Below, one piece after another: positions 15,599 through 56,353 of a stretch of DNA of 64,000 nucleotides (position 1 is its first letter; every line of letters starts with the position of its first letter). This DNA is from a virus, in the IMG/VR virus record IMGVR_UViG_3300045988_089740; one strand, given 5' to 3'. The notes beneath the pieces are model-generated. The model did not search any database, was not told where the DNA came from, and saw only the letters and a program-made list of their open reading frames with translations. The position numbers and the translations under genes were made by a program.

Positions 15599-15669
15599 TG
15601 GAATGTAGCTCAGTGGTAGAGCAGTGACTTACAAGTCATGTGTCGCAGGTTCGATTCCTGCCTTTCCGA
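15599..15669 (+). tRNA. aberrant tRNA (Val-like UAC) with 6-nt anticodon loop
   Basis: Good D arm GCTC-AGTGGTA-GAGC and T-arm GCAGG-TTCGATT-CCTGC; anticodon stem GTGAC/GTCAT leaves loop UUACAA (6 nt); acceptor has U1-G72 and U6-U67. Confidence 0.45.
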
Positions 15670-16273: not shown

Positions 16274-16983
16274 ACGAATTGAAGGTATTAAATGAGCAGG
16301 AAGTGTTAGGAAAACAGTTTAAGGTTTACGGAACAGCAGAGGAACCACTGTTCCTGGCTAAAGATGTAGCGGAGTGGATTGAGTATGACACATCATCAGT
16401 GCATAAGATGCTTACCAATGTAGACGATGATGAAAAGGTTCGGAAGAATGTTCCGACCCTTGGAGGAACACAGGAATCATGGTGCCTTACCGAGAACGGA
16501 CTTTACGAAGTCCTGATGCAATCCAGAAAGCCGATCGCAAAGCAATTTAAGAAAGAAGTCAAAGAGATTTTGAAAACCATCCGTAAGCATGGCATATATG
16601 CTACAGACAATGTTATCGACAATATTCTCAATAATCCAGACTTTGGCATCGAACTTCTGACCAAACTGAAAGAGGAACGTGCTGCAAGAGTAGAAGCTGA
16701 GAGAAAGAACGCTATTCTGATGCACGTCAATAAGACGTATACCATTACTGAGATTGCTAAAGAACTGGGACTGAAATCAGCGATGCAGCTAAACCGGATT
16801 CTGGCAGAAAAGAAAATCCAGTATCAGGTGAACGGTACGTGGTTGATGTACTCCAACTACAGTGACTGCGGATATGAAGAAATCAAACAGGAAGTATTGG
16901 ATTCTGGAAAAGTAATCTACCACAGGCGAATCACACAGATGGGACGGGAGTTTATTCTTGATTTGTTTGAGAAAACAGCATAA
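16270..16983 (+). CDS. BRO-N / KilAC-type phage antirepressor
   Basis: FKVYGTAEEPLFLAKDVAEWIEY (Bro-N) and ITEIAKELGLKSAMQLNRILAEKKIQ..WLMY (KilAC-like); start at internal ATG 16270. Confidence 0.75.
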   Translation: MNELKVLNEQEVLGKQFKVYGTAEEPLFLAKDVAEWIEYDTSSVHKMLTNVDDDEKVRKNVPTLGGTQESWCLTENGLYEVLMQSRKPIAKQFKKEVKEILKTIRKHGIYATDNVIDNILNNPDFGIELLTKLKEERAARVEAERKNAILMHVNKTYTITEIAKELGLKSAMQLNRILAEKKIQYQVNGTWLMYSNYSDCGYEEIKQEVLDSGKVIYHRRITQMGREFILDLFEKTA

Positions 16984-20564: not shown

Positions 20565-22307
20565 ATGTCAAAAATTACAGAAGGCTCATTTGAATGGTAT
20601 CGGGCAGTCTTAAATCAAATCATCAGCGGAGATATGTCTGTTTACCAGAATCAGAAAGACTGCCTTGATCTGTTGTTAAACATGAACATTGATTTACCGT
20701 TTACGGAGAATCCGGAAGCACAGCAAATGGCAATAAAAGTAAGTAAGTATACTCATAACGTAGCCGCAAGACAAGCTGCACTGACGGGAAGCGGTAATTT
20801 TGATGATATCTACTGGCAGTGTTTGCTGTTGGAAGCACAGAACTATCAGGTTGACAGCGGACTCCTTTACCTTGAAAAGAACCGAATCCCGAAAGAACGA
20901 TTCTACGAACCACGAAGAAATGTGTTCTTACAACATAACATCATAGGGTCACTGCAAGACCTGATGGATGACAAATTAGATATATTTGCATTAAGCGTAC
21001 CTCCGGGTTGTGGCAAGAGTACTCTGGAAGATTTCTTTTTATCATTGGTAGGTGGATGGTTCCCGAATGACTTTAACCTGTCTTCAGCACACAGTAGCAT
21101 TTTGACACGTTCCCTTTATGATGGCGTTCTGGAAATTATCAATGATCCCGTGGAATACACGTGGCATGAAATATTCCCGAACGTAGAAATTCAAGGAACA
21201 AACGCAAAGGAAACTACAGTCAATCTCGAAAGAAACGGACGATTTAAGACATGGACATTTCGTTCTATTGATGGTTCTTTGACTGGTGCCACTAGATGCA
21301 ATAGATTTCTTACTGCCGATGACCTTGTGTCTGGTATTGAAGAAGCTTTGAATAAGAACCGACTTGATACCTTATGGACAAAAGTGGTAAATGACTTACG
21401 TTCCCGTAGACTTGAGGGATGCAAAGAGTTTTATATTGCCACCAGATGGTCAGTACATGACCCTATTGGAAAACTGCAACAACTGTATGCCGGAAACCCA
21501 CGGGCAAGGTTTATTGCAGTGCCAGCACTTGATGAAAATGGAAAGAGCAATTTTCTGTTTACGGTAAATGGATTCTCCGAGAAATATTTCAATGATGCTA
21601 AGGAATCCATGGATGAAATTTCTTACAACTGTCTTTATCAGCAACAACCGGTAGAACGTGAGGGATTATTATTACCGCCAGATAAATTAAAACGATTCTT
21701 TTTCAGTAAAGAAGACGTGCCGGATGGATGCGCGGATGAATACATCATCATTCCAGATAAAGATGCAGATGCAATATGGGCGGTATGCGATACAAAAGAT
21801 AAAGGAACTGACTTCGAATCATTACCGATTGCATACCAATACGGAGATAAATTTTTCTTTCCTGATGTGGTGTTTGATGACACTACAGACTATGACATTC
21901 TGGATAGAAAGACAGCAGATATTTTGATAAGACATAACCCACATAAGATTCGTTTCGAATCAAATAATGTCGGAAACCGCGTGGCACACAATATTCAGAA
22001 AATGATTACTGGAAAGTGCAGAGCTGAAATTGAGACAAAACCAACGTCGGCAAATAAAGAAACAAAGATTCTCGTAAATTCGGACTATATAGCAAAACAT
22101 TTTTATTTTCTGCATCCAAGTCAGTACAAAGCAAAGTCTGATTACGGATTATTTATGGCTAATGTAACTACGTACACTACTAGGGCAAAAGTACCACATG
22201 ATGATGGAATCGATTCTTTGGCTATGATGGCTGAGTACACACAAAATCCATTAGGCGGTAAAGCGACAGCAATGCAGAATCCATTATGGGGAGGGAGAAT
22301 GAGATGA
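20565..22307 (+). CDS. terL: terminase large subunit
   Basis: Walker A PPGCGKST, Walker B-like FLTADD, nuclease-domain pattern ATRWSVHDPIG; 580 aa, followed by portal. Confidence 0.85.
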   Translation: MSKITEGSFEWYRAVLNQIISGDMSVYQNQKDCLDLLLNMNIDLPFTENPEAQQMAIKVSKYTHNVAARQAALTGSGNFDDIYWQCLLLEAQNYQVDSGLLYLEKNRIPKERFYEPRRNVFLQHNIIGSLQDLMDDKLDIFALSVPPGCGKSTLEDFFLSLVGGWFPNDFNLSSAHSSILTRSLYDGVLEIINDPVEYTWHEIFPNVEIQGTNAKETTVNLERNGRFKTWTFRSIDGSLTGATRCNRFLTADDLVSGIEEALNKNRLDTLWTKVVNDLRSRRLEGCKEFYIATRWSVHDPIGKLQQLYAGNPRARFIAVPALDENGKSNFLFTVNGFSEKYFNDAKESMDEISYNCLYQQQPVEREGLLLPPDKLKRFFFSKEDVPDGCADEYIIIPDKDADAIWAVCDTKDKGTDFESLPIAYQYGDKFFFPDVVFDDTTDYDILDRKTADILIRHNPHKIRFESNNVGNRVAHNIQKMITGKCRAEIETKPTSANKETKILVNSDYIAKHFYFLHPSQYKAKSDYGLFMANVTTYTTRAKVPHDDGIDSLAMMAEYTQNPLGGKATAMQNPLWGGRMR

Positions 22308-22723
22308 ATACACGACAATATCTTGAGCAAGTGCAAGATTCTGATAGAAAAATACAGAATAAAATACAGGAAGAATACCGCTTAAGGCTTTTGGCAACCA
22401 GTATATCTTCTTTTTCAAATGGAGATAAAGTGCAGACTTCCGGCGGAAAAGACCGTGTTGGTGATGCTGTAACCAGAATTGTTGAATTGCAGCAGGAAAT
22501 AGCATCTGATGTCAAGGAACTGGCAGAATTGCAAATGAAAGTTTCCGGAGATATCAATGACATGGAAAACTCCATGTACTCATCCTTACTTCATAAGAGA
22601 TACATAGAATTTAAAAATCTGGTCACGGTCGCAGACGAGATGGGATATTCCGTACAGCATATCCGTTCCTGCCATGGAAAAGCCATTGAAGCTTTGCGGA
22701 AACAAAAGCATTTTGAAAGTTAA
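22304..22723 (+). CDS. putative late-gene regulator with sigma-70 region-4-like HTH
   Basis: ATGA overlap with terL; C-terminus YIEFKNLVTVADEMGYSVQHIRSCHGKAIEAL resembles sigma r4 / ArpU-RinA-like regulators. Confidence 0.45.
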   Translation: MNTRQYLEQVQDSDRKIQNKIQEEYRLRLLATSISSFSNGDKVQTSGGKDRVGDAVTRIVELQQEIASDVKELAELQMKVSGDINDMENSMYSSLLHKRYIEFKNLVTVADEMGYSVQHIRSCHGKAIEALRKQKHFES

Positions 22724-22731
22724 TATGTTTT

Positions 22732-22820
22732 AATATGGAATCATATGTTCTATGTATAATATAATGTAACCTGTAAAACGAGCATCGGAGAGTAATCCGG
22801 TGCTTTTTTAATGCCCAAAA
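22732..22820 (+). promoter_or_regulatory. late-operon cassette copy 1 (box, -10, hairpin, U6)
   Basis: AATATGGAATCATAT 22732-22746; TATAAT 22755-22760; hairpin GCATCGG/CCGGTGC 22782-22803; U6 22804-22809; AATGCCCAAAAAT. Confidence 0.55.
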
Positions 22821-22836: not shown

Positions 22837-24330
22837 GTGGGCAGAAATAAAATGAATTTCATTGACTTATGCCGGGGCGAATTTGGCCGCAAAATTGCCT
22901 ATACCGGTGTAAGCCAGATCACAACAGCAAATGTCATAAAAGTTATTTCTAATACAATCGGCATTCATAATAGAAACAGAACTTTGATCGATTACTTGTA
23001 CCGGTACTACAAAGGAGATCAGCCGATCCTTTATAGAGAGAAGTTGGTTCGTCCGGAAATTAATAACCGAGTGTGTGAAAATCATGCACTTGAAGTTGTT
23101 CGCTTTAAATCATCTCAGACATATGGAGAACCTATTCAGTATGTATGTAAAAAGAGCAGGGCTACAGAACGGGTGAATAAACAGGTCGATTTATTCAATG
23201 ATTACTTAAAAGAAGCAAATGCAGAAGCACGTAACATTGAACTTGGAACCTATCAGAGTGCCGTAGGAACTGCATATAAAGCTATTCTAAAAGAGGATGA
23301 TTGGACGAGCGACAGTGATATTTCTCCATTCAACATTTTTATACCATATCCTAGCGATTGCTATATTGTTTACTCTCGTAAGAACGGAAAGCCAATGCTC
23401 TCAGTGCAGATTCTTAAGGATGAAAACGAACAGCAGTATTATTTATGCTTTTCAGCAAAACAATATTTCGAGATTCAGAATGGACAGATTACAAAAACCG
23501 GCATCAATGGTTTTGGTGGCATCCCGGTAGTTGAGTACCCGAATAACCACGATCGTCTTTCTGATATCGAGATTGCGATAACCATGTTTGACACTATGAA
23601 CAACATGCAGTCAAACAGGATGGATGGCGTAGAACAGTTCGTGCAAGCCCTTATGAAGTTTAAGAACTGTGAGATTGATGAAAGCGAATTTTTGAAAATG
23701 ATCAAGCTCGGCGCTATCTCTGTAAAGGATACTGGAAATGGTTGCCAGTCAGATGTTGACCTGATGACCGCTGAACTGAATCAAACAGAAAGCCAAGTTG
23801 CAAAAGACGATATCTACAGCAACATGCTTATTGTTGAAGGTATGCCGGACAGGCAGCAACAATCTTCTGGCGATACCGGCCAAGCTGTATATCTCAGAAA
23901 TGGATGGGATTTTGCAGAACGTAGAGCAAAACTGGATGAACCATTTATCCGGGAAGCTGAGAAAGCAAGTGCCAGAATCATTCTGAATATCATCCGACAG
24001 ACCACAAAGGATATTTCAATCTCAACAAGAGATTTTGATGTAAAGATAACCAGAAACCCGACAGATAACATGCTTGTCAAAGCACAGGCTCTTGACTATC
24101 TGTTTAAGAATAAAATTCATCCGCTGATTGCACTGATTACTTGCGGATTATTTAGTGATCCACAAAAGGTATATGAAATGAGTTTGCCTTACTTGGGAAC
24201 TGTATATCCCGAACTGGCAGACCCGGACGCGGAAATGCAGAAAGCACAACAATTGATTGATAAAAACGGTAAGAATTCGGCTGAAATTGATTCAACGGTA
24301 AATTCTTCGGCTATCAATCAAAACTCGTAA
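22837..24330 (+). CDS. portal protein (SPP1 gp6-like)
   Basis: GTG start after GGGAGGTG (alt ATG 22852); LIDYLYRYYKGDQPIL..RPEINNRV..N.A..VVRFK pattern of SPP1-type portals; position after terL. Confidence 0.8.
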   Translation: MGRNKMNFIDLCRGEFGRKIAYTGVSQITTANVIKVISNTIGIHNRNRTLIDYLYRYYKGDQPILYREKLVRPEINNRVCENHALEVVRFKSSQTYGEPIQYVCKKSRATERVNKQVDLFNDYLKEANAEARNIELGTYQSAVGTAYKAILKEDDWTSDSDISPFNIFIPYPSDCYIVYSRKNGKPMLSVQILKDENEQQYYLCFSAKQYFEIQNGQITKTGINGFGGIPVVEYPNNHDRLSDIEIAITMFDTMNNMQSNRMDGVEQFVQALMKFKNCEIDESEFLKMIKLGAISVKDTGNGCQSDVDLMTAELNQTESQVAKDDIYSNMLIVEGMPDRQQQSSGDTGQAVYLRNGWDFAERRAKLDEPFIREAEKASARIILNIIRQTTKDISISTRDFDVKITRNPTDNMLVKAQALDYLFKNKIHPLIALITCGLFSDPQKVYEMSLPYLGTVYPELADPDAEMQKAQQLIDKNGKNSAEIDSTVNSSAINQNS

Positions 24331-27509: not shown

Positions 27510-27547
27510 CAAGCAATTCCACTTGTAAGGGAGGATGGTGGAATTAT

Positions 27548-27802
27548 ATGAATTATACAGACTTTTCAGAAGATGAAAGAAAGTTTTATCTAAGTGAATC
27601 CGGGTTTGATTCCCGAGAAAAAGAGTTTTTCCGGTTGAGAGTTTATGAGGAAAAGACGTTGTTTGAAACAGCAGAGATTATGGGGTATAGTCCTAGAACC
27701 ATTGACCGTATAAACCGAAAAGTAAAAAAGAAGATTGTTAAAGTTGCCCCGATGTACTATCGGGGCTTTTCTTTGTATCATGGCGAAAACATGGCGAAAT
27801 AG
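27548..27802 (+). CDS. small sigma-70 region-4 / LuxR-type HTH protein
   Basis: SD GGGAGGATGGTGG; REKEFFRLRVYEEKTLFETAEIMGYSPRTIDRINRKVKKKI. Confidence 0.5.
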   Translation: MNYTDFSEDERKFYLSESGFDSREKEFFRLRVYEEKTLFETAEIMGYSPRTIDRINRKVKKKIVKVAPMYYRGFSLYHGENMAK

Positions 27803-27878
27803 TGTCGTTTAAATACTTAAGTTTCTCCCCTATAATATAAGTATAGAGAAAAGCTTACAGAGATGGGAGGAACACACT

Positions 27879-29530: not shown

Positions 29531-29607
29531 GTAACTCACCCTTAGAGGTTGACTAATTCTAAGAGGTGGGTTGTGGCTCACCTCTTATTTGATTGAGAGG
29601 TAGAAGT

Positions 29608-30677: not shown

Positions 30678-30711
30678 AGTCCTTGTTGCAGAAATGTGAC
30701 AGGGACTTTTT
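30678..30711 (+). terminator. intrinsic terminator
   Basis: AGTCCTTGT/ACAGGGACT 9-bp stem (one U-G) + U5. Confidence 0.55.
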
Positions 30712-30728
30712 AATTACGGAGATTGATT

Positions 30729-35345: not shown

Positions 35346-35399
35346 ACCTTAAAACTAGATAAAAATAATCTAGTTTATTATACGATTTGCCTATGCAAA

Positions 35400-35480
35400 A
35401 ATATGGAATCATATGGCTTGTTTTTTGTACAATTAAGATGCGAAGCATCTACCGGAAAGGTAGGTGCTTTTTTCATGCCA
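35400..35480 (+). promoter_or_regulatory. late-operon cassette copy 2
   Basis: AATATGGAATCATAT 35400-35414; TACAAT 35428-35433; hairpin GCATCTACC/GGTAGGTGC 35445-35467; U6; CATGCCAAAAAAA. Confidence 0.55.
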
Positions 35481-37791: not shown

Positions 37792-40700
37792 ATGGCTGAT
37801 AATACCATTGATACCCTTGATATACAAATAAATAGTAGTACCAGGAACGCTACAAAAGCATTGGGAAATCTGGCTAAAAAGTTAAAGGATGTTGACACAG
37901 CACTGGGAAACGTCAATACCGGCGGGCTTAGAAACTATGCTCGTGAAATCGGAAGAGTATCAGCGGCTTTACAGACATTAAGCAGGACAAATGTTAGTGT
38001 GCCTAATTTGTCTGGATTAACCGGACAACTTCGTAGTTTATCGAAAGTTAATTTTTCGGAATTGGAAACAAGTGCAAAAAGCTTTCAAGAATTAGCTGTA
38101 GGATTGGGCTCTTTGAAAAATGTTTCTAGTGTTTCTATACCTAAAATAGATGCTAAAAACATCAATTCTGTGATTAATGTTATAAATAAGTTTCAAACAA
38201 TTGATACTGCAAAAATTCAACCATCCATAAATGCTATTAAAGAAATATCAAGAAGCATGTCGTTGCTGGGTAATTTGAATTTCAAAGAAAATGGTCTGAT
38301 AAATGCGGCAAATGCATTAAGACGTTTATCACAATCAGACATTAAAAACTTTGATACAGACAAATTAATTTCCATATTCAGAAGTCTTCAGGCTTTTTCA
38401 ACGCTTCCAGATATTTCATCAGGCATAAACAGATTGGTTTCATCTCTTGCAAAATTAGTGGCCGCAGGAGATAAATCGAATCAAGCGGCTAAAGGATTAG
38501 AATTACTTGGAATAAAATTAAACGGAGTCATAAGAAATATTTCATACGCAGGCGAAGTCTCTGATTCCATTAATTCGTTGATACAAGCCCTTGCAAAATT
38601 GGCATCAGCAGGAAATAAAACAGGCCAGACGGCATCGCAGTTAGCAAATCTTGCAGTAGAATTAAAGAAGTTTTTTGCAGCTATGAAAAACGCACCACAA
38701 ATCAGTCAGAGCACTGTGCGCGTTATAGTTGCACTGGGACAGTTAGCGGCGGCTGGTGGTAAGGCTAGTGCATCAATGAATTCTGTATCCAGATCCCTTG
38801 AAGGACTTTCTATGATAAGTTCTAGTTTATCAAGCGCCATGAGCTCACTTGCTAATATGGCAAAATCGGGATTTGGTACTTTAACATCATCTATTTCAGG
38901 GCTGGTAAATAAGGGAAAAGAATTAAAAAGTACATCATTCAATATCAGCTCTTTGCTTAAAACCGTTCTTGGCTTCAAAGCGGCTTCGGCCGTGATGAGC
39001 AAATTCAGCGAAGCCATGGGTGGAAAAGGAATCCTTGAGATCGGTTCCGATATCGCTGAGGTCGAGAACGTTGTAGACGTTGCTTTTGGAAGCATGGCAG
39101 ATCAGGCATACAAGTTTGCGTCCACGGCGACGAAACAGTTCGGACTGTCGGAACTGGCAGCAAAGAACTATTCCGGAACCATGATGGCAATGCTGAATGC
39201 TTCTGGTGTAGCACAGGAATCCGCTGCGAAGATGTCAACAACTCTTGCAGGATTAGCCGGAGATTTGGCATCTTTTTATAACATTGATACTGATACCGCC
39301 TTCTACAAAATAAGGGCGGGCATTTCAGGTGAAATCGAGCCTTTAAAACAGCTCGGAATAAATCTTTCGATCGCAAATTTACAAGAGTATGCGTTGTCAC
39401 AAGGAATTACGACAGCCTATAATTCCATGACGCAGGCTCAAAAAACGATGCTGCGCTATAACTACATCATGTCAGTTACAAGTGCGCAGCAGGGGGACTT
39501 CGCCAGGACCGCCGGATCTTGGGCCAATCAAGTACGTCTCCTTACTTTGAACATCCAGTCCCTTGCATCCGCCATAGGGCAGGGCTTAATCGCAGCGGTT
39601 CTTCCGGGAATCAAAGCTCTTAATGCCCTGATGTCCAAACTTATGCAGGCAGCAGAAACATTCAGAAACTTTATGTATGTTTTAATGGGTAAAAAAATCA
39701 AAGGATCTACCAGCGGAGTTGTGAATGATCTTGCCGGACTTGATAACGCAGCAACAGATCTTAGCAATATGGAAAATGCCGGAGATGACGCAGCATCCGG
39801 ACTTGATAACGCCACTTCATCAGCAAAAGCATTAAAGAAAGCCCTTTCAGTACTTCCTTTTGATGAATTAAATCAGCTTACTGATAATTCGAGTAGTTCT
39901 GGATCAACGCCGAGTACCGGAACAAAGAAAACCAGTACCGGTGCAACACCTGACCTTGGGCTTGGTGGCATCACGGATCAGATTGATGATGCGCTGAACA
40001 AAGAAGAAACCCCTATCAATAAATGGGCTGAAAAAATCCGCAAAGCTTTTCTTAACCATGACTGGAAAGGACTTGGAAAGACCATTGCAGATATGCTTAA
40101 TATCGGAATCCGGAAGATTTATGATGTTATAAGTTGGAAAAATGTTGGCCCTAAAATCACGGCTTTCACAGACGCTTTTACAGAAACATTTAACAGTCTT
40201 GTTGATAATATTGACTGGAACCTGATGGGACGCACTTTGGGGGCTGGTCTTAACACCATCGTTAACACTATGAACCAGCTCCTTGATGGAATTGATTGGT
40301 ATAACTTAGGAGCCAAATTTGGAACCGGAATTACAGGACTTGTAAAAGAAGTAAATTGGACTAATCTTGGAAACCTTATTGGAAATTCATTTATGAAAGC
40401 CTGGGACATGTTCGCTGGCTTGGTAAATCATCTGCCCTATGCAGATATCGGAAAAGCATTTGCTGATTTATTAAATGGAGTTTTCGAAAAAATTAACTTC
40501 ACAAACATAGCACACGTATTAGCTACTGGTTTAAACGGTGCGTTTGATTCTCTTAAATCATTTACTGTAAATTTCAAATGGGATGATCTTGTCGATAACA
40601 TTACTGGCGGCATCACCACATTCATGCAGCAATTTAAGTGGAAAGAAAACGGTCAGAAGCTTGAGGAATTTATAGATAACCTTTTGACATCCCTTGTCGA

Positions 40701-42633
40701 CATTGCGAACGGTGTAGATTGGGAAGCTTTTGGACATAATATAGGTGTTTTCCTTAGCGAAATAGACTGGTCGAAACACTTGTCACAAATCACAACAGTT
40801 ATCAGCGAGGTTCTGGGCGGAATTTGGAATGGTCTTGGTACCACATCGGCAGGAACTTTTATTCAGGCTATAGCAACATTTGCCATTGGTATGAAATTAA
40901 TGCCATTTGTCGATGGAATCGTAAAATTTTTCACAGGTGATACTGTAATTGGTTTGCTGTATTCAGCTGTTCGGAACATGTTAGGCCCAGCATTGGCTTC
41001 AGCAGCATCTACTACGATTCCAGCGTTTGGCTCATCACTCGCAGCTCTTGTAGGAACCGGTGGCGGAATAGCTATTGCTGCCGCAGGAGCAGTAATTCTT
41101 ACCAAAAAACTTGTAGGGTTGTTTGAAACTATGCAAGGTGGAAATGGAATGTCTACTCAGTACGGCGGTTATCTGCATGACTATGCTGCAAAACTGAATG
41201 AATTAACCACAATCACAAATGATCAATCAGAAGCCCTGTGGAAAATGATTGAAAAAGATGAAGAGCTTGGTAAATCTCATGATGAAATGTATTCTGATAT
41301 GATTGAAAAGCTTAAAGAATACGGAGTTTCGACAGAACAAGCCAGAAGTGCTCTTGAACAATATGGTGCACAGGCTGGCGTTTCTGCTGAGTTTATCGAT
41401 AGTATGACAGATAAGATTCAGGCATTAGGAAACGGCTTTTCTGAAAGTACGGGCCAGATTGATATGTCTTCTCTTAGTGCAAAAGAAGCTATTAGCACGC
41501 TTTCTGACACTTTGTACCTTTTAAGCTTAAAAGGTGATGAATTTAGTGGTACATATATCGGCGTAAGAGATCAGTTACAGAACACCGGAGGAAGCGTGCA
41601 AAGTGCAAACGAAGCGTTAAAAATAGTATACAATGCATTACAAAATGCAGGAGTACCTCTCGATGATTTGAATAAAAAATTATCGAAAGATTTTCCAAAC
41701 GCTACCGGAGCTGTTACTACTGCGGTTAAAAATAATATTGTTGGTGCGCAACAAAAAATTTCCTCAACTATGATGACAGCAAGTGTTGATACAAAAAATG
41801 CAACAAATAAAATGGTAAGCACTACTACAAGCGATCTCGCTGAAATCCAGAAGCAAGCAGATGGCTATATGAAAGGTGTTGACACCAGCACGACAACTCA
41901 CTGGGGAAATTCTTCCCGTGAAGTAACCAAAAATGTCCGTCAGATGAAGATTGATGCAAGTACAGAGCTTGGCAGAATGGACGAAACCGTCCGCAGCCAC
42001 TTTGGAAGCCAGTACAGGATTGCCTTAAGTAAATGGCAAGATCTTGGAAGAGATATTTCTTCCTACATCCGCGGAACTATGAACACAAGTATTGGAAGTG
42101 GAATTAATACTGTAGTTGATACGATTAAAAGAAATTTCAGTGATATGTACAGTGTTGGCCAGAATGCTATGCAGAATCTCCGAAACGGCATGGAGTCAAT
42201 CAACATCAGAACTCCACATATTTCCATGGATTACACTGATTGGCAAGAGGGACGGACCCACAAGTGGCGGTACAATTCGAGAGTTGACTGGTATGCCAAA
42301 GGCGGTCTTTTCAATGCAGCATCCGTGATCGGTGTCGGTGAAGCCGGAAAGGAAGCAGTCCTTCCGCTGACCAACAAACAGGCCATGAAGAGCATTGCTG
42401 ACAGCATTACCGGAAACATGCCGGAAGGAAGCGTTGGACTGAGCAAGGAAGAAATGACACAGGCAGTGACACAGGGTGTTGCCATGGCAATGATGAACAT
42501 GAACACCGGCGGAAGCACATCTCCGCAGTACATTTCCAACACGATCAATCTGGACGGCCGGGCGTTTGCGAAAGCTATCACAAAAGCCCAGCAGGACAAC
42601 AACCGGCGTAAAAATCCGAGTCCGGCATGGTAG
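37792..42633 (+). CDS. tape measure protein
   Basis: 1613 aa, helical/Ala-Ser-rich with hydrophobic central segments, after chaperone pair. Confidence 0.9.
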   Translation: MADNTIDTLDIQINSSTRNATKALGNLAKKLKDVDTALGNVNTGGLRNYAREIGRVSAALQTLSRTNVSVPNLSGLTGQLRSLSKVNFSELETSAKSFQELAVGLGSLKNVSSVSIPKIDAKNINSVINVINKFQTIDTAKIQPSINAIKEISRSMSLLGNLNFKENGLINAANALRRLSQSDIKNFDTDKLISIFRSLQAFSTLPDISSGINRLVSSLAKLVAAGDKSNQAAKGLELLGIKLNGVIRNISYAGEVSDSINSLIQALAKLASAGNKTGQTASQLANLAVELKKFFAAMKNAPQISQSTVRVIVALGQLAAAGGKASASMNSVSRSLEGLSMISSSLSSAMSSLANMAKSGFGTLTSSISGLVNKGKELKSTSFNISSLLKTVLGFKAASAVMSKFSEAMGGKGILEIGSDIAEVENVVDVAFGSMADQAYKFASTATKQFGLSELAAKNYSGTMMAMLNASGVAQESAAKMSTTLAGLAGDLASFYNIDTDTAFYKIRAGISGEIEPLKQLGINLSIANLQEYALSQGITTAYNSMTQAQKTMLRYNYIMSVTSAQQGDFARTAGSWANQVRLLTLNIQSLASAIGQGLIAAVLPGIKALNALMSKLMQAAETFRNFMYVLMGKKIKGSTSGVVNDLAGLDNAATDLSNMENAGDDAASGLDNATSSAKALKKALSVLPFDELNQLTDNSSSSGSTPSTGTKKTSTGATPDLGLGGITDQIDDALNKEETPINKWAEKIRKAFLNHDWKGLGKTIADMLNIGIRKIYDVISWKNVGPKITAFTDAFTETFNSLVDNIDWNLMGRTLGAGLNTIVNTMNQLLDGIDWYNLGAKFGTGITGLVKEVNWTNLGNLIGNSFMKAWDMFAGLVNHLPYADIGKAFADLLNGVFEKINFTNIAHVLATGLNGAFDSLKSFTVNFKWDDLVDNITGGITTFMQQFKWKENGQKLEEFIDNLLTSLVDIANGVDWEAFGHNIGVFLSEIDWSKHLSQITTVISEVLGGIWNGLGTTSAGTFIQAIATFAIGMKLMPFVDGIVKFFTGDTVIGLLYSAVRNMLGPALASAASTTIPAFGSSLAALVGTGGGIAIAAAGAVILTKKLVGLFETMQGGNGMSTQYGGYLHDYAAKLNELTTITNDQSEALWKMIEKDEELGKSHDEMYSDMIEKLKEYGVSTEQARSALEQYGAQAGVSAEFIDSMTDKIQALGNGFSESTGQIDMSSLSAKEAISTLSDTLYLLSLKGDEFSGTYIGVRDQLQNTGGSVQSANEALKIVYNALQNAGVPLDDLNKKLSKDFPNATGAVTTAVKNNIVGAQQKISSTMMTASVDTKNATNKMVSTTTSDLAEIQKQADGYMKGVDTSTTTHWGNSSREVTKNVRQMKIDASTELGRMDETVRSHFGSQYRIALSKWQDLGRDISSYIRGTMNTSIGSGINTVVDTIKRNFSDMYSVGQNAMQNLRNGMESINIRTPHISMDYTDWQEGRTHKWRYNSRVDWYAKGGLFNAASVIGVGEAGKEAVLPLTNKQAMKSIADSITGNMPEGSVGLSKEEMTQAVTQGVAMAMMNMNTGGSTSPQYISNTINLDGRAFAKAITKAQQDNNRRKNPSPAW

Positions 42634-42640
42634 AAAATCA

Positions 42641-42809
42641 TTGCTATTCCTGCTAGATTGCGGTATAATGAATGAGTAACAAGTAGCACCTATATCTTGT
42701 TATATTGTGCGAAAAACAAAATATTGAGCAGACTTTTAAGATGATATTTACTTGGGTTGAAACAATGACCCGTTTCCCGTGATACCGTCTTGGAGTCTGC
42801 TCTTTTTTT
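42641..42809 (+). promoter_or_regulatory. promoter plus ~130-nt leader closed by terminator helix
   Basis: TTGCTA 42641-42646 /17/ TATAAT 42664-42669; GAGCAGACT 42726-42734 / AGTCTGCTC 42794-42802 + U7. Confidence 0.4.
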
Positions 42810-42833
42810 GTTTTATAGAAGGGAATGAAGCAA

Positions 42834-43043
42834 ATGAAGCCATATGGATTAGTTGACAGAAATATTATACTCAACAATAGTCTATCGTTGGAAGCAAAAG
42901 GAATATACGGCATATTGATGAGCCTTGATGGAACAGACTTTGAACTGGATGAAATCTGCGAATATGTTTCAGAGAGCAAATCAGTTGTCGAAAAAGCTTT
43001 AAACGAATTGGTAAATCATGGATTTATTTCATTCGAAAAATAA
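42834..43043 (+). CDS. small winged-helix DNA-binding protein
   Basis: LSLEAKGIYGILMSL..ELDEICEYVSESKSVVEKALNELVNHGFI; second ATG has better SD spacing. Confidence 0.45.
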   Translation: MKPYGLVDRNIILNNSLSLEAKGIYGILMSLDGTDFELDEICEYVSESKSVVEKALNELVNHGFISFEK

Positions 43044-43055
43044 TACGGTAAAACC

Positions 43056-43107
43056 AACAGGCTTACCCGACGGGGGACAAGCGGAAATGCCTTGCCGCCT
43101 GCCTGTT
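43056..43107 (+). repeat. hairpin repeat X1 flanking HNH gene
   Basis: AACAGGC/GCCTGTT stem; shares AGGCT...CCTGCCT frame and loop words with X2. Confidence 0.4.
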
Positions 43108-43158
43108 GATTTACATACATTTCAAGGCATCTTATATACGAAAGGCAGGTATTTTTCT

Positions 43159-43524
43159 ATGGCAAAATCTTTTAATTACCGTAAATATTACAAAGACTAT
43201 TATGGGATTGATTTCGACAGTAGCTATGTAATCCACCATATTGACTTTGACAGAAGCAACAATGATATTAATAATTTAATTTTATTACCTTCGAAGTTAC
43301 ATAGCCGATATCACTTTTTGTTAACTGGATTTAATCCTGATAAAAACAATAAAGGAATTGCAAGTCTTGATTTTAAAATCGTCTCAGAATGCGGGAGCAT
43401 CCCTATGTTTGGAATAAACATGATGAAAAATTTGTGTGAAACAATGGTAGAAATTGATAAATGGGTAAGAATAAAATCCGACATGGATAAAGAAAAATAC
43501 AATAAAGAAAAGTACGGTATTTAA
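43159..43524 (+). CDS. HNH endonuclease
   Basis: VIHHIDFDRSNNDINNLILLPSKLHSRYH = HNH motif; internal ATG 43159. Confidence 0.7.
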   Translation: MAKSFNYRKYYKDYYGIDFDSSYVIHHIDFDRSNNDINNLILLPSKLHSRYHFLLTGFNPDKNNKGIASLDFKIVSECGSIPMFGINMMKNLCETMVEIDKWVRIKSDMDKEKYNKEKYGI

Positions 43525-43538
43525 TATTTAGTTAAATT

Positions 43539-43597
43539 CAGTAGGCTAGGTTGGCCGCCGAAAAGTGTAAACCTTGATGCACCTGCCTACTGTTTTT
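43539..43597 (+). repeat. hairpin repeat X2 flanking HNH gene (terminator-like)
   Basis: CAGTAGGC/GCCTACTG stem + U5. Confidence 0.4.
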
Positions 43598-43657
43598 ATA
43601 AATCAAGGATTCTGGCATATTATGGAGATGCCAACGACCAACAAGGAGGTTATCATT

Positions 43658-44635
43658 ATGAACAAAGAGTTTAATTATCCAAGAGATTTTAAAGGAGTAT
43701 GGATCCCGAAACAGGTTTTTCTTGATGAAAGATTAAATGCGATTGAAAAATTGATTCTGGCAGAAGTCGACAGTCTTGATGTAGAAGGAAGCGAAGGATG
43801 CTTTGCGAGCAATGAATATTTAGCAAATTTCTGTCAATGCAGTGTAACAAAAGTTTCTACTTCTGTTTCCAAGTTAATAAAGCTTGGATATCTTTATGTG
43901 CTTAAAAATGACGGAAGAAAAAGGTACTTAAAGAGTAGGCTTTCAAATTTTGAAAGCCAGGAATTTAAAAACAGTAATTCAGACACGCCAAATATGAAAC
44001 ATAGTAATAATAGTTATGAATACAGTGTAGATGATATAGATAAAGACTTTATTTTATCAAATAAAGAGAAAAAGACTTTACCAAAGAATGGTAAAGGTTC
44101 AAAGACTTCTGCTCCTAATAATATTAATATACTAGATATAAATAATATACCCTCACGGACAACTGAGCAGAAGGAAGTGTACCGCAAGCAAAAACAGAAA
44201 AATCGTTCTGAGAAATACCGGGACGAAGATGTACCACAGATTCTGTATAATGAGTTTGATTCACTGTATGGTGAACAGGAGAATATTCTGGAAGATCATG
44301 ACATCTGTCTGACCATGGCAGTTATCGCTTATTACTTCAAGCAGTACCGGGAGCACATGGGCGAACAGCATATAATGATTTCAACCAAATACGCAAATCA
44401 GTTCATGGGAGTTATCATTGGCGATGATTCGCCACTTCTGAAAGCGGACGTGGAAGAAAAAGATGAACTCCGGTTCTATCAGGACATGATAGACGAGTTT
44501 TTTAAATCAGACCTTGGTCAGCGAAATGGAAAAGACTTCGATCGTCATATCTGGCTGTTCTTCACTGAAGAGAATCAGAGAATCTTGTGTGAACGGGTAA
44601 AGCAGAAATGGGATAACCAAGAATACATTGACTAA
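43658..44635 (+). CDS. wHTH (DnaD/replisome-organizer N-like) domain protein
   Basis: SD AAGGAGG then ATG 43658; FKGVWIPKQVFLDERLNAIEKLILAEVDSL...SKLIKLGYLYV. Confidence 0.45.
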   Translation: MNKEFNYPRDFKGVWIPKQVFLDERLNAIEKLILAEVDSLDVEGSEGCFASNEYLANFCQCSVTKVSTSVSKLIKLGYLYVLKNDGRKRYLKSRLSNFESQEFKNSNSDTPNMKHSNNSYEYSVDDIDKDFILSNKEKKTLPKNGKGSKTSAPNNINILDINNIPSRTTEQKEVYRKQKQKNRSEKYRDEDVPQILYNEFDSLYGEQENILEDHDICLTMAVIAYYFKQYREHMGEQHIMISTKYANQFMGVIIGDDSPLLKADVEEKDELRFYQDMIDEFFKSDLGQRNGKDFDRHIWLFFTEENQRILCERVKQKWDNQEYID

Positions 44636-44746
44636 ATCAATCCAAAATCCGTTTGAAATACCGTAGGTGATAATTTCCTCACGCAAACGATTCAAATTGA
44701 TTCTGGCTTAAAATAATACAGTAATTAATTAGAAAGTGAGAAAGAA

Positions 44747-45601
44747 ATGAGTAGACTTGGAAAAGAAATGCCGGCAGAATATTCTGATCAGTTTGATGAA
44801 CTGAGACAAAACCGGTGCGAAACAAGCTTTTACAAATACGGCACTGCAAAAGATAATTTCGGCGAGAAATTGGTAAATGCCATAGAATCTCATGATATGT
44901 GCATCAAAAAATATCTTAAAACCGGCAACACGGAGTATCTTTGCGATGCTGCAAATTATCTGATGTTCGAATTTATGTACCCACAAAAAGACGGTGCTTA
45001 TTTCAAGGCTACTGATAGTGGTGAAAGTGCCGGATGCGCTCTGATGGACGATGCAGTTAATGACATCAAAGGCGATCTGGTTGGAAATGGATATACAATC
45101 CGCACCTATAATAACTACGGTCAAAAGGTCATGACCACGGTCGGCGACAAGATCAATGTTCAAGGGAATCCGATTGAGACAACTTCTTACAACAGTGATG
45201 GAACTGTGATCAGCGGATATGAGCTGTCATCCGTGATCACGATCAATATTGATGGCAATGAAATCCAGAGCTGCGGCGACACCTGCATATTTGAGCAAGA
45301 TGGTCTGGAACCGGACGTGGATTTTGAGCAGACTGATATTTACAGTCAATCTACAGGAAAGCTTTCTGACAATACTTACGTTGCCGGGATCGTAAATCAG
45401 TACAAGAATTATTTTGGAAAATCCAGAGTTGTTGTGATTAAATCTCAGCTGGGGCAGCCTATTACAGCATATTCTGGTGACGAAGTATACTGGAAGATTC
45501 CGAAGAAGTTGCCGAAAATGACAAAACTCATGATTGACGGGAAAGCCCTTTACATCCACCGGGCGAACTTTCAGATCATTGACACAGCCTTGCTCAAATA
45601 A
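44747..45601 (+). CDS. hypothetical protein, 284 aa
   Basis: ORF with weak SD; N-terminal helical segment ..TGNTEYLCDAANYLMFEF, beta-rich C-terminus. Confidence 0.5.
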   Translation: MSRLGKEMPAEYSDQFDELRQNRCETSFYKYGTAKDNFGEKLVNAIESHDMCIKKYLKTGNTEYLCDAANYLMFEFMYPQKDGAYFKATDSGESAGCALMDDAVNDIKGDLVGNGYTIRTYNNYGQKVMTTVGDKINVQGNPIETTSYNSDGTVISGYELSSVITINIDGNEIQSCGDTCIFEQDGLEPDVDFEQTDIYSQSTGKLSDNTYVAGIVNQYKNYFGKSRVVVIKSQLGQPITAYSGDEVYWKIPKKLPKMTKLMIDGKALYIHRANFQIIDTALLK

Positions 45602-45764
45602 AACGGCTTAAATACGGGCACGATTTTTTTAAACGATAAAACTCCACAGAAACACAAAAAATGGATTCTGCATGATTTTGCCTAATCAATTACTGCGATT
45701 CTCATTGTAGTTTCTCTTTATCAGATGTATAATTGGATTATCAATTAAAGGGAGGAAAAAGAAA

Positions 45765-46652
45765 ATGAAAAAGTGGAAAAAGTTTACAGTGATTTTGCTG
45801 GCAATGATTATGGCACTTGCCATGGCGGTTCCGGCATCGGCGGCAACAGTTAAAATTAACAAAACAAAGGTGACGATTTGCACAGGACAGACATTGCAGC
45901 TGAAGATGGTCGGAACGAAAGCGAAGCCAAAATGGTCTAGTAATTCAAGAAATGCAGTTGTGAACAGTACTGGGAAAGTTACCGCAAAGGCCCGGGGAAA
46001 AGCCACGATTACTGCTAAAATCGGGAAAAAGAGTTATAGATGCATGATAATAATAGAATCACCCAAAATTAGCAGCACAAGTGTTTCACTGTACAAAGGA
46101 AAAACGGCGCAGCTTAAAATGCTGAATACGAAACAGAAATACAGATGGACATCTTCAAACGCCAAAGTTGCGACAGTTTCGTCAACCGGTAAGATTAGAG
46201 GAAAAAGTGCCGGGACTGCTTATGTTTCCGCCAGAAGTGCGTCTGGTAAAACATTTAAGTGCAAAGTCACGGTCAAGAACACACCTAGCAAACTTAAAAT
46301 GCTTTTACCAAACCAAAAAGAGTGTGGAGATGCAGATTTCTTTATTGAATATAATTCTCAAAGAAGTACAAATGGTAAAACCGTACTTATGCAGTTATAT
46401 AAACAATTCCCGATGGGGTATATTAACTTTTCGGCCAGTAATGTCGATCGTGGCTTAACGACATATATCTATATTGATGGAAAACTTTGGGATCAGAACA
46501 GAGGTACTTCTGTTAGCGGCGGGGGATCATTGGATGACATTTATATAAAACCTGGAACACATGTTGTTGAAATGGTGCAATTTGCGAATAATAATCGTTA
46601 TGGAAAAGTGAAGTCGTATCGTAGAGCGATGTACAAAGTGATTTACAAATAA
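45765..46652 (+). CDS. secreted protein with three Big_2-like Ig repeats
   Basis: Signal peptide MKKWKKFTVILLAMIMALAMAVPASA; repeats ..L.L....KPKWSSSN..VA.V...GK..AK..G.A.I.A. Confidence 0.65.
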   Translation: MKKWKKFTVILLAMIMALAMAVPASAATVKINKTKVTICTGQTLQLKMVGTKAKPKWSSNSRNAVVNSTGKVTAKARGKATITAKIGKKSYRCMIIIESPKISSTSVSLYKGKTAQLKMLNTKQKYRWTSSNAKVATVSSTGKIRGKSAGTAYVSARSASGKTFKCKVTVKNTPSKLKMLLPNQKECGDADFFIEYNSQRSTNGKTVLMQLYKQFPMGYINFSASNVDRGLTTYIYIDGKLWDQNRGTSVSGGGSLDDIYIKPGTHVVEMVQFANNNRYGKVKSYRRAMYKVIYK

Positions 46653-46712
46653 AGCTATGGACCGGGGAGAAATCTCCGGTTCTTTCTTTTTTGCTTGAAT
46701 GCCATATGTAAA

Positions 46713-46800
46713 AATATGGAATCATATTATATTAAAAACGTATAATGAATAATCATAAAGCGTCTATCTTTTGATAGGCGCTTTTTTCATGTACAAAAAT
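46713..46800 (+). promoter_or_regulatory. late-operon cassette copy 3
   Basis: AATATGGAATCATAT 46713-46727; TATAAT 46741-46746; hairpin GCGTCTATC/GATAGGCGC 46760-46781; U6; CATGTACAAAAAT. Confidence 0.55.
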
Positions 46801-46815
46801 GAGGTGATTATTCAT

Positions 46816-47181
46816 ATGGCAGACGTTTTTATAAAAATCAATGGTGCAGCGATGCCTTGCCCATCTTCTTTTACCTGGGGGCTGCAAGATATTTCAGCAT
46901 CAGAATCTGGACGTACTGATGATACGATCATGCATAAAAACCGCGTTGGCCAGAAACGGAAACTGGCTGTTGGATGGAATGCACCGGATTGGGATACTGC
47001 TTGCAAGATCGTACAGGCTGTAAACCCAGAGTATTTTTCCGTTGAATATCCTGATCTTTTATCTGGAAATAAACATGAAGTAAGAACTTTTTATGTCGGT
47101 GACCGGTCTGCCCCGTTCAAATATTGGTGGGTAGGAAATCAGCGGATGGAAGGTTTGCAGTTTGATTTGATTGAAAAGTAG
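46816..47181 (+). CDS. small distal-tail (Dit-like) protein
   Basis: SD GAGGTG then ATG 46816; first gene after tape measure/moron block, before Tal. Confidence 0.4.
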   Translation: MADVFIKINGAAMPCPSSFTWGLQDISASESGRTDDTIMHKNRVGQKRKLAVGWNAPDWDTACKIVQAVNPEYFSVEYPDLLSGNKHEVRTFYVGDRSAPFKYWWVGNQRMEGLQFDLIEK

Positions 47182-50100: not shown

Positions 50101-50561
50101 CAAGCGCCGCATTGAACAGGGTAGCTTATCTGTCATCGGCAACACGATCAAATAAAGCCGCATTGACGGTATCGGCCCAGTGGGGTTCGAGTAACTATAC
50201 TACAAACACTTTATATAACGATTCTGCTTCCGATATCCGATTAAAAGAGAATGTTTTAGACTGCGAAATTAATGCTCTTGATGCGGTCTGCAAAATGCCG
50301 GTATGCTCATTCGACTGGAAAGAAACTGGCGTCCATCAGCCGCTCGGACTTGTTGCAGATGATATTGAAAAAATAGATCCGTTACTGGCACTAGGCGGTG
50401 GTGAGAACGAAGACGGAAGCATGAATGTTAAGCAGATTGACAGGCTTCTTCTGACCGAATATGCAATTAAAGCAATCCAGGAACTGTCAGCTACAGTAAA
50501 AGAGCAGAGCTGCAAGATTAGAAAATTGGAGGGAAAATTGGATGGAATTAAAGGGAATTGA
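47193..50561 (+). CDS. tail-associated lysin/fibre (Tal-like) with C-terminal S74 intramolecular chaperone domain
   Basis: TTG start after GGAGGTG; 1122 aa; C-terminus SDIRLKENV..DAV..MPV..F.WKE....LGLVADDIEKI matches peptidase S74 auto-cleaving chaperone. Confidence 0.7.
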   Translation: MRYVSSRFKTEQNNDNRNYLKYADITLTDGTVLNLTNTDFWSNGMKFEDSVSDDSAFTIGSANINTVNLSINNFDEKYTDYDFTNAEVICYVGLEVEPTSGTEKEIEKIRICTMTVVDTPYQDTTIIELTCEDNMRKFDRDYSESKLKYPATRRQIIQDACNVCGVTLDTLSFDQDSYQIVTRPDDDALTFRQVLAWVCQIGCQYARCDRYGRLTIKWYDTEIVDANRIEINSTSKFTPNLDDVVITGVRVTEYIEATSDDKTASSYLYGNEGYVLEISENKLIPQGTGETVAAMIGEKCVGMSFRPFETQCLTDISIEAGDAVLITDRKGNKYKSFLTNVVLQPGVFEQISCNAESAARNSSKQYSLITQTVVDARKSVQKEKAQRELALEEFEKRLDKSSGVFTTIETQEDGSKIFYLHDKPKLSESQGIWRMTAEAWGVSNDGGNTWNGGMTVDGDAIVRILEAVGVNANWINAGAITVKDAEGNLLFSVDMDTKSVYISGNVQIGGGKTFDDTLKEFAASAKNMTIQLSNEYQGIPVNSDGNYINFPECSTQVTVMYGAQDITENCSYTITESQNISGSWDEVEHTYTVESLTADSGWIDIRATYLENLSVSKRFTIAKQYAGEQGTAGRTYFINADADILLMGADKKITPNVLNLRPYYRDGQEDAKNFYAWWTIEKSVDNGSSWEDISTYSTSMKLIQIQLNALSLEAHDMIRASAYADKEKTILCDQQTFPVALDVSALSQKDIVEILSNNGAWKGLYYLNNELYVSFNAALGGILTLGGQNNGNGLLILLDDEGSEIGRMSSGGMSFRNSDNNIVIRINKSGMFFYDSTGQKRKVLTDSSGITMYTDYTDANNWKAIKIGKYGIYAAEKSGGAEDLWMEGDTSHQWDGYILRFLNGAVRLNANAVYTDGCSMGKNLTTSGTLSVSGDTGLKGDAYVAGNFSFRDYKEEEANTSTRRRPVSSASAALNRVAYLSSATRSNKAALTVSAQWGSSNYTTNTLYNDSASDIRLKENVLDCEINALDAVCKMPVCSFDWKETGVHQPLGLVADDIEKIDPLLALGGGENEDGSMNVKQIDRLLLTEYAIKAIQELSATVKEQSCKIRKLEGKLDGIKGN

Positions 50562-55630: not shown

Positions 55631-56353
55631 ATGAACGAATTACATATTTTCAATTCAGAGGAGTTCGGAGATATTCGAACAGTAACAATTGACAATGAAC
55701 CTTGGTTTGTTGGAAAGGATGTAGCAACAGCATTGGGATATAAAAATACCGCTGATGCTATTGGAAAGCATATAGATACTGACGATAAGCTGACATCGCA
55801 AATCGCGATTGCAGGTCAGAGAAGAGACGTAGTAGTAATCAACGAATCCGGATTATACGCTTTAATCCTCGGGAGCAAGCTTGAATCAGCTAAGAGATTC
55901 AAACGTTGGGTAACAAGTGAGGTTCTTCCAGCAATCCGTAAGACAGGTTCTTATCAGAAACCAATGACCACAGCAGAGCAGATTCAGTTGTTGGCACAGG
56001 GAAACATCGAGCTTAAAGAAAAGATTGATGCTGTCAATGATGACTTGCAGGAGTTCAAAAGAGACATGCCTTTACTTGCACTGGAATGTCAGAAAATCAC
56101 AAAGGCAAAGAACCAGAAAGTAGTTCCGATACTGGGTGGAAAGAATGCACCGGCATACAAAGATAATTCATTGCGTCAGCTCGTGTACAGTGATATTGAC
56201 GCGCAGCTTCGCAGGGAATTTGGCGTGAATACCTACAAGGCAATCAAGAGAAACCAGTGCGATATGGCAATAAAAATCATAAACGAATATGAGCTGCCGA
56301 TGTATTTGAAAGATCGCATTGATGATGCGAATGCTCAGAGTAGTTTCTTATGA
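55631..56353 (+). CDS. BRO-N / ORF6C-type antirepressor-like protein
   Basis: FGDIRTVTIDNEPWFVGKDVATALGY (Bro-N); C-terminal ORF6C-like segment. Confidence 0.7.
   Translation: MNELHIFNSEEFGDIRTVTIDNEPWFVGKDVATALGYKNTADAIGKHIDTDDKLTSQIAIAGQRRDVVVINESGLYALILGSKLESAKRFKRWVTSEVLPAIRKTGSYQKPMTTAEQIQLLAQGNIELKEKIDAVNDDLQEFKRDMPLLALECQKITKAKNQKVVPILGGKNAPAYKDNSLRQLVYSDIDAQLRREFGVNTYKAIKRNQCDMAIKIINEYELPMYLKDRIDDANAQSSFL

Follow-up and report, generated by a model that had tools for sequence, protein, structure and literature searches.

Three similar cassettes lie on the + strand of the 64,000-nucleotide (nt) stretch of viral DNA analysed here (IMG/VR record IMGVR_UViG_3300045988_089740; the whole stretch is called the window below), at approximately 22723-22809, 35391-35473 and 46704-46787. 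Each of them heads a block of late genes: portal and head genes past copy 1, tail genes past copy 2, and tail-tip and endolysin genes past copy 3. In every copy, three (A/C)TAT(G/T) pentamers with 10-bp phasing, including the invariant 14-mer ATATGGAATCATAT, are followed in order by 13 nt, a TAYAAT -10 element, 10-16 nt, a hairpin of 8-9 bp, an adjoining T6 tract, a Shine-Dalgarno (SD) sequence and a start codon. The three boxes fall at about -50, -40 and -30 (spanning about -50 to -26), at a fixed distance from the sigma-A-type -10, and the hairpin with its U6 ends about 40-45 nt past the -10. A preliminary description had presented the third copy as the last of three late-operon control cassettes, which agrees with the number, strand and gene context of the copies found here, but had not named the type of cassette; we identify it as a predicted promoter responsive to a late transcriptional regulator (Ltr), joined to a terminator-like leader hairpin.

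Copy 3 starts with the predicted Ltr boxes ATATG (46704-08), ATATG (46714-18) and ATATT (46724-28), spaced by 10 bp, with ATATGGAATCATAT at 46714-46727. In detail, the first ATATG is followed by 5 nt, ATATGGAATC (46714-23), the ATATT, 12 nt and the -10 element TATAAT (46741-46746), which stands 13 nt past the 14-mer box; the stretch from TATAAT to the stem reads GAATAATCATAAA. The hairpin and its U-tract occupy 46757-46787, with the stem arms GCGTCTATC (46760-46768) and GATAGGCGC (46773-46781) around the loop TTTT (46769-72). The stem has an AAA/UUU extension (46757-59 with 46782-84), and the T6 at 46782-87 is followed by CATG, by the SD sequence GAGGTG (46801-06) and by the ATG at 46816 of the DUF6711/phrog_1194 gene (46816-47181, + strand). 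Copy 2 (35391-35473, + strand) has its pentamers at 35391, 35401 and 35411, TACAAT at 35428-33, and the hairpin GCATCTACC (35445-53), GGAAA, GGTAGGTGC (35459-67) with T6 at 35468-73; it precedes the tail module (open reading frame (ORF) 35525 onward), in which the tape-measure gene occupies 37792-42633. Copy 1 (22723-22809, + strand) lies directly past the stop codon of the ltr gene and precedes the portal gene (22837-24330). Its pentamers are at 22723, 22733 and 22743, two overlapping TATAAT hexamers at 22755-60 and 22760-65, and the hairpin GCATCGGA (22782-89), GAGTAA, TCCGGTGC (22796-22803) is followed by T6 at 22804-09. A second -10-like hexamer (TAnnnT) was seen 0-3 nt past the -10 in nearly all cassette types inspected; in the window such sites lie at 22766-22775, 35434-35439 and 46748-46753 (AATAAT), and in Clostridia prophages the second hexamer falls within a conserved TATAAT-RG-TATYRTG-AAAA block. 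A pause element, an alternative -10 and a start region are candidate roles for it.

A scan of the window with the pattern of three phased pentamers, 13 nt and TANAAT gave exactly three matches with 0 mismatches, at 22724, 35392 and 46705 on the + strand, where 0.16 matches would be expected by chance even with three mismatches tolerated. Exact matches to ATATGGAATCATAT were found only at 22733, 35401 and 46714. The cassette gave no match to GenBank phages by blastn. Meanwhile, no Rfam family matched at its gathering score at the window cassettes or at nine related loci, the listed matches with E up to 10 being sub-threshold noise.

The regulator gene, ltr (22304-22723, + strand), encodes a 139-aa late transcriptional regulator of the DUF1492/LtrB family. 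The protein matches PF07374 (DUF1492) with 27.1 bits (cut-off 21.5) and phrog_36, 'transcriptional regulator', at 7.7e-18, scores 23 bits against Sigma70_r4, just below the cut-off of 24.1, and has 4290 relatives at E<=1e-3. Within the Ltr superfamily of late regulators, DUF1492 corresponds to the LtrB family. In an AlphaFold2 model (mean predicted local distance difference test score, pLDDT, of 88), a long N-terminal helical hairpin is combined with a C-terminal helix-turn-helix domain that resembles sigma region 4, and the best structural matches of this domain are the region-4 (-35-binding) domains of extracytoplasmic function (ECF) sigma factors over about 46-76 aligned columns; these Foldseek matches in the PDB have template modelling (TM) scores of 0.6-0.8 (target-normalised), and none reaches E 0.001. 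No Pfam or PHROG match of Ltr was to a protein like the lambda antiterminator Q, and no Q structure occurred among the top 50 Foldseek matches in the PDB. The start of ltr overlaps the large terminase gene (terL, 20565-22307), which lies upstream and hence outside the first Ltr cassette.

Previous studies showed that Ltr proteins bind direct repeats just past their own gene and switch on the late operon, and such repeats are established as Ltr sites for the superfamily, both the binding and the need of late transcription for Ltr having been shown for other members (PMC3753634). In the window, the copy 1 boxes (three ATATG with 10-bp spacing) begin 1 nt past the ltr stop codon, and TATAAT follows 13 nt past the box. 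The boxes differ between relatives: an Ltr 71% identical to that of the window is accompanied by ATATG/ATATA/ATATG, one 45% identical by GACAC/AGCAC/AACAC (RRCAC type), and one 41% identical by GATAC/TATAC/GATAC, while all three lineages keep the 10-bp phasing, then the -10, then the hairpin with its T-run. Since the boxes change with the diverged Ltr while the design of the cassette stays, the upstream half is best described as an Ltr-dependent late promoter of a known kind, with boxes predicted to bind Ltr; the lineage comparison also points to repeats that are specific for the cognate Ltr. Scanning with the GATAC-type box gave 122 instances, of which 119 carry a perfect hairpin and T-run; the 122 are spread over at least four different cassette sites, and a single contig has as many as three loci. 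GATAC boxes replace ATATG boxes at several sites together, as expected if one Ltr reads all of them. In the search with the RRCAC-type box one copy per contig was obtained, the flanks ending short of where copies 2 and 3 would be expected, and no ATATGGAATCATAT-type box was found in the 12.4 kb around ltr in PV036440.1 (Ruminococcus phage NatCom_28775, Ca. Heliusvirales), whose Ltr is 32% identical.

The downstream half of the cassette is an intrinsic-terminator-like leader hairpin, its terminator properties being predicted from the sequence. The folding energies of the three hairpins on the + strand are -15.2, -16.4 and -16.6 kcal/mol, equal to those of the ordinary terminators of the window genome (-14 to -18 kcal/mol), and the Z-scores of the leaders range from -3.2 to -6.2. 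On the - strand the energies are only -9.6 to -11.5 kcal/mol, because the U.G wobble of each hairpin turns into an A.C mismatch there. All three copies were found by a terminator scan, with the T6 immediately adjoining the stem, and all three show the sequence features of an intrinsic terminator, namely a G+C-containing stem of at least 5 bp, a loop of 3-8 nt and a U-run 0-2 nt past the stem on the transcribed strand. The apical stem of copy 3 differs from that of copy 2 (CUAUC/GAUAG versus CUACC/GGUAG) by a U-A pair in place of C-G, and a further compensatory difference, G-C versus A-U, is found at stem position 3, while a U.G wobble at stem position 4 is common to all three copies. The wobbles are always G.U and never A.C on the + strand, which indicates that the constraint acts on the + strand RNA.

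The preliminary description had regarded the apical difference as a sign that the RNA structure is under selection. That difference is real, and the compensatory pattern is present and much stronger in a wider sample, which was collected by an exact-pattern scan of IMG/VR and comprises more than 117 loci on phage contigs of the human gut; these contigs often carry two or three cassettes. Instances defined solely by the box, 13 nt and the -10, and thus blind to the hairpin, have a perfect hairpin and T-run in 172 out of 172 cases (50 distinct downstream sequences). Within each paralogue type, all stem substitutions preserve pairing, four of them being transitions to G.U, and the copy-3 type contains one double change from C-G to U-A. 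The loops vary freely (GAGTAA, GGAAA, TTTT, TTCG, TAAAAT and others), and the spacer between box and -10 is variable in sequence among relatives and fixed in length. In an alignment anchored on the T-run and likewise blind to the hairpin, which combined 30 distinct leaders of two box lineages with the ltr-adjoining leaders of two relatives (L119 and L122), RNAalifold found the hairpin de novo, with compensatory double changes at nine of the 11 pairs. The paired cells amounted to 95.8% versus 77.3% in shuffles, and the covariation score was 0.671 versus 0.310 in shuffles and 0.09-0.20 in slid controls. A first count of 45 hairpins pointed in the same direction, but this set had been preselected for perfect stems and was not relied on. 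The pairing of the hairpin is shown by these data to be under selection as + strand RNA.

Several other readings of the leader were considered and rejected. An N4-like DNA-hairpin promoter or a cruciform was ruled out, as the G.T wobbles are confined to the + strand and the other strand gets A.C mismatches. Loops of the CsrA-type GGA kind were dismissed because the loops are unconserved, and a mini-ORF starting from the AUG of CAUGCC because neither frame nor stops are conserved. An upstream anti-terminator pairing (GAUGC with GCAUC) occurs in copy 2 only, the register of a closing helix between leader and SD differs from copy to copy as judged by reading, and a sigma-A promoter 3' of the hairpin has just one weak, unconserved candidate, ATGCCA-18-GATAAT in copy 2. 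In addition, a U5-6-(C/A/T)AUGCC(C) sequence was seen directly past the hairpin (window 22804-22816 and 35468-35479; L365 1225-1262; L366 1226-1275); it recurs in phages of Clostridia, Streptococcus and Gardnerella despite their different boxes and stems, and is absent in L001 and L119.

The order of promoter and then terminator is also found in other phages. In a set of 77 Clostridia prophage ltr loci for which the Ltr protein was the sole anchor, only a few bases separate the best -10 from the ltr stop codon. A hairpin with U-run starts at most 30 nt past the -10 in 42 loci (55%), the figure for control TATAAT sites of these loci being 9%. A TG at the extended -10 position was counted manually in about 44 of the 75 Clostridia loci with an assigned -10; extended -10 (TG) promoters need no -35. 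Two isolated phages, Streptococcus phage Javan630 and Gardnerella phage vB_Gva_AB1, both have ltr, three repeats, a -10, 23-27 nt, a hairpin, U5-6, (C/T)ATGCCC and an SD sequence. In the rinA-terS region of 80alpha (L367 224-410), TGGCAGT repeats are followed by the -10-like hexamers TAAAAT/TATTAT, about 70 nt, a 9-bp hairpin GGGTTGGCT/AGCCAATCC with T6, and the small terminase gene terS, and the published late 5' end lies about 20 nt past the T6 of this hairpin. Phage phi55 (LtrC family) has four AAATGAC repeats at 10 bp and then TATAAT. Its start site was dropped as an anchor, since the published distance of '28 bp upstream of terS' could not be reconciled with the annotated ORFs.

In published reporter constructs with an upstream inducible promoter, no read-through to terS occurred without functional RinA/Ltr (PMC3152322, PMC3753634), which implies a working terminator in the ltr-terS region. 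The authors placed it 'between ltr and the terS promoter', mapped the late 5' ends of phi11/80alpha and phi55 to 23-28 bp before terS, found Ltr to be the only phage protein needed for terS expression, and read it as a promoter activator (PMC3152322, PMC3753634). Our literature search found no description of a terminator inside an Ltr-dependent leader, nor of Ltr as an antiterminator.

Copy 3 follows an insertion of approximately 4 kb (42634-46658, + strand) between the tape-measure and DUF6711 genes. This island carries an HNH ORF, an HTH_36 replication-initiator-like gene, a DUF5052 gene and a Big_2-domain gene, which ends at 46652, upstream of the island's own terminator (46659-46692, + strand; stem 46659-46682, then TTTCTTTTTT; -15.6 kcal/mol). 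The latter is separate from the cassette. Past copy 3 lie the DUF6711/phrog_1194 gene and the genes of a tail protein of 1122 aa and of the endolysin, the start of the endolysin ORF overlapping the end of the tail protein ORF by 20 nt (50542-50561). In phages whose DUF6711 protein is 46-62% identical, the DUF6711 gene stands directly past the tape-measure gene, with neither island nor cassette, and in closer relatives with other insertions there (L331, L339) the cassette is present with the box of its own lineage. The position of the island and the lack of both island and cassette in distant relatives support the earlier proposal that copy 3 restarts late transcription past the cargo, here predicted to concern the tail-tip and endolysin genes. 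As to the island itself, two matches to the int-alpA RNA motif of Rfam (43055-43127, 42.6 bits, and 43539-43608, 55.2 bits; gathering score 35.8) flank a 168-aa HNH-endonuclease-like ORF (43018-43524), the first overlapping the 5' part of this ORF, and the next ORF is HTH_36. The island may be a small mobile or satellite-like element.

We tentatively favour, as a plausible reading that falls somewhat short of probable, that the hairpin gates the late operon and that polymerase loaded with Ltr passes the terminator, which would include a weaker form acting locally and non-processively. The leader hairpin would then be a true intrinsic terminator. As a gate, it would stop polymerases arriving from the early operon (copy 1), the head operon (copy 2) and the island (copy 3), and it would also stop basal firing of the bare -10 promoter, so that the tail and endolysin genes would be silent without Ltr; such silencing would matter because the endolysin lies downstream. 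Polymerase initiating with Ltr at the adjoining boxes would pass the hairpin by promoter-coupled antitermination, functionally like lambda Q at PR'/tR', and the three copies would re-prime late transcription at the module boundaries. The transcript that has read through would carry a stable stem-loop at its beginning, with possible protection of the 5' end as a further effect. A sigma-4-like domain docks on the beta-flap tip at the RNA exit channel. A sigma-4-like Ltr could ride on the beta-flap there, at the very site where terminator hairpins form.

Several features of the cassettes are consistent with a gate. The hairpin, 10-16 nt past the -10, falls within the first ~45 nt of the predicted late transcript. 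On the + strand, the terminator scan gave no terminator-like site from terL/ltr to the portal gene other than the copy 1 hairpin, and in many relatives the head and tail modules are separated by no terminator except the one at copy 2. In the window, copies 2 and 3 each have a separate terminator upstream, and their hairpins are nevertheless maintained by purifying and compensatory selection. Retention of the hairpin with compensatory change where an upstream terminator already insulates argues that it does more than insulate, and since a hairpin this strong would waste most late transcripts, its retention at copies 2 and 3 favours passage with Ltr.

Nevertheless, a number of points weigh against the gate. 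The start site and the termination efficiency are predictions made from sequence alone, and Ltr has no sequence or fold similarity to Q proteins. Cassettes that re-prime transcription past terminators argue against fully processive antitermination of the Q type. The published late 5' end of 80alpha is downstream of the terminator-like hairpin, and Ltr is reported there as an activator (PMC3152322, PMC3753634). The second -10-like hexamer, 0-3 nt past the -10, does not have the position of the lambdoid sigma-dependent pause. Moreover, Ltr-dependent expression would likewise result from a strong late promoter and a terminator that leaks to some extent.

This last arrangement is part of a different explanation, in which the hairpin is a leaky attenuator or insulator that ends a fixed fraction of transcripts for all polymerases, a strong Ltr-activated promoter outproduces the loss, and the 5'-proximal stem-loop on read-through transcripts slows decay of the RNase J1/RppH type. 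We consider it possible but rather doubtful. Transcription starting about 7 nt past the -10 would leave only 3-9 nt before the stem in the three window copies, 5'-proximal stem-loops are generally known to stabilise Bacillus mRNA (aprE and ermC leaders), booster promoters past each module suit a non-processive system, and the sequence requires no special factor. However, most transcripts should end at a hairpin that folds at -15 to -17 kcal/mol and has a perfect U6, a heavy cost to be paid three times, and a stabiliser needs no U-tract, whereas the U-run is kept in 172 of 172 and in 119 of 122 instances. The hairpin is also not 5'-terminal in other phages, its distance from the -10 being 14-29 nt at many Clostridia loci, about 70 nt in 80alpha and 23-27 nt in phages Javan630 and vB_Gva_AB1, and the lack of detectable read-through from an induced upstream promoter without Ltr indicates an efficient terminator (PMC3753634). 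Alternatively, the terminator might serve for upstream transcripts only, the late start lying within or just past the hairpin. The RinA/LtrC-dependent 5' ends 23-28 bp before terS, in 80alpha past the hairpin (PMC3152322; PMC3753634), would agree with this, and counting back 23 bp from the start codon at window copy 1 leads to a position just past the U-tract. Such an arrangement is nevertheless unlikely, for no -10-like sequence is present in or past the hairpin (GGTGCTTTTTTCATGCC), the SD sequence of some relatives lies 2-3 nt past the U-run and leaves no room for a start site, the sole conserved -10 lies upstream and keeps a constant distance to the boxes, and copies 2 and 3 keep their hairpins though separate terminators lie upstream.

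It is still less likely that the leader acts as an RNA recognition element, either a nut-like protein site made up of the hairpin base (GCAU/GUGC with the U.G wobble), U6 and CAUGCC, or, once terminated, a small RNA (sRNA) of about 40 nt resembling the PR' leader StxS. The stem base, the wobble position and T6-(C/A/T)ATGCC do recur in distant phages including those of Streptococcus and Gardnerella, and short terminated PR' transcripts can act as sRNAs (PMC7547250); however, the loops are wholly unconserved, CATGCC is missing from many cassettes (L001, L119 and most Clostridia loci), and its spread is partly an artefact of a search pattern that required it. Neither the PHROG scans of ten early ORFs nor Rfam provided support, the former giving no RNA-binding or antiterminator candidate and the latter no family match. 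Finally, the hairpins could be ordinary operon-end terminators that were copied along with the promoter and have no special function. The window does contain many terminator-like hairpins, yet promoter and hairpin have been kept together as a unit in two lineages whose boxes differ, and this unit occurs past ltr genes at six times the control rate. This explanation, which we regard as very improbable, is disfavoured by the comparative data.

A bolder and more doubtful proposal, which we nonetheless regard as a distinct possibility, is that the 'late activators' of the Ltr superfamily in Gram-positive phages are promoter-loaded antiterminators or terminator-bypass factors, an analogue of Q derived from a sigma-4 fold. 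Ltr on phased repeats at a largely self-sufficient -10 would then make the polymerase blind to a terminator in the first ~45 nt. If true, this would account for an old puzzle in phi11/80alpha, where the distance from the RinA sites to the mapped late 5' end downstream exceeds 155 bp and a terminator intervenes.

The cassette resembles the Ltr-superfamily late promoters of Gram-positive siphophages (RinA, ArpU, LtrA, LtrB/DUF1492 and LtrC; Ferrer 2011, Quiles-Puchalt 2013) in having a small basic, sigma-region-4-like regulator encoded just upstream of the late genes, direct repeats with helical phasing immediately past the ltr stop codon, specificity in the repeats and in the C-terminal region, and a terminator between ltr and the first late gene, functional in the published cases and predicted here. 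It differs from those described in that three cassettes are present in one genome, as against a single late promoter, and in that the first cassette precedes the portal gene with terL upstream of ltr, whereas theirs precedes terS/terL. In addition, the published work assumed a terminator between ltr and the promoter, while here it is past the -10, inside the leader. With the lambda Q/PR'/qut/tR' system the cassette shares a regulator gene directly upstream of the late promoter, a DNA site of the regulator at the promoter, an intrinsic terminator (predicted here) close downstream so that a short leader only would be made without the regulator, late lysis genes that would depend on passage, and a second -10-like hexamer near the predicted start, which is closer to the -10 here than in lambda, 82 and 21. 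The pause element of lambda at +1 to +15 contrasts with a -10-like element 0-3 nt past the -10 in our case, and several cassettes, each past a terminator, would be superfluous in a fully processive system; antitermination is deduced here. As with P2 Ogr, several late operons each begin with the same activator-responsive promoter, but Ogr is a zinc finger that uses a dyad at -55 and contacts the alpha subunit, and P2 late promoters lack a leader terminator. The Bacillus aprE and ermC stabilisers likewise have a stable stem-loop a few nt from the predicted 5' end and a strong SD sequence soon after; a U-tract is not obligatory in them, however, and the hairpin in relatives of the cassette is often 15-70 nt from the predicted start. 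In contrast to N/nut, there is no conserved boxB-like loop, since loop sequence and length differ freely.

Some further features of the window were observed. Between cassettes 1 and 2, the head module contains internal terminator-like hairpins without Ltr boxes at 27510-27878, 29560-29597 and 30678-30717, of which the intergenic stretch 27510-27878 also has consensus-like sigma-A promoters at 27663 and 27808; late transcription must read through or restart there. A cluster of four tRNA genes lies at 14515-15669 in the early region. In the relative with an Ltr 71% identical (L119), a tRNA array contains a full-length ROOL RNA (4267-4843, 371 bits), and the window has only tRNAs there. Two Ant-type anti-repressor genes are present at 16237-16983 and 55631-56353. 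The region of 52.4-54.3 kb, past the endolysin gene, is transcribed from the opposite strand; it could represent a module for lysogeny or cargo.

The novel aspects of this system are the multiplied cassette, its predicted restart of transcription past cargo, and the strongly selected, putative intrinsic terminator within the late leader. Ltr proteins control packaging and lysis, and hence transduction and satellite mobilisation, in a very large proportion of the temperate phages that infect Firmicutes and related bacteria, and have so far been described as plain activators of a single promoter. The window and several hundred related cassettes suggest that the Ltr-responsive unit is a promoter together with a leader terminator, that this unit can multiply to re-prime late transcription past cargo, and that its boxes co-evolve with the regulator, which in one lineage concerns several sites per genome. 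The position of the terminator past the promoter makes the question of how Ltr acts with sites far from the mapped 5' end and a terminator intervening testable by reporters. In uncultured gut phages, the cassette may also serve as a practical marker for the starts of late operons and for the module boundaries at which cargo is inserted.

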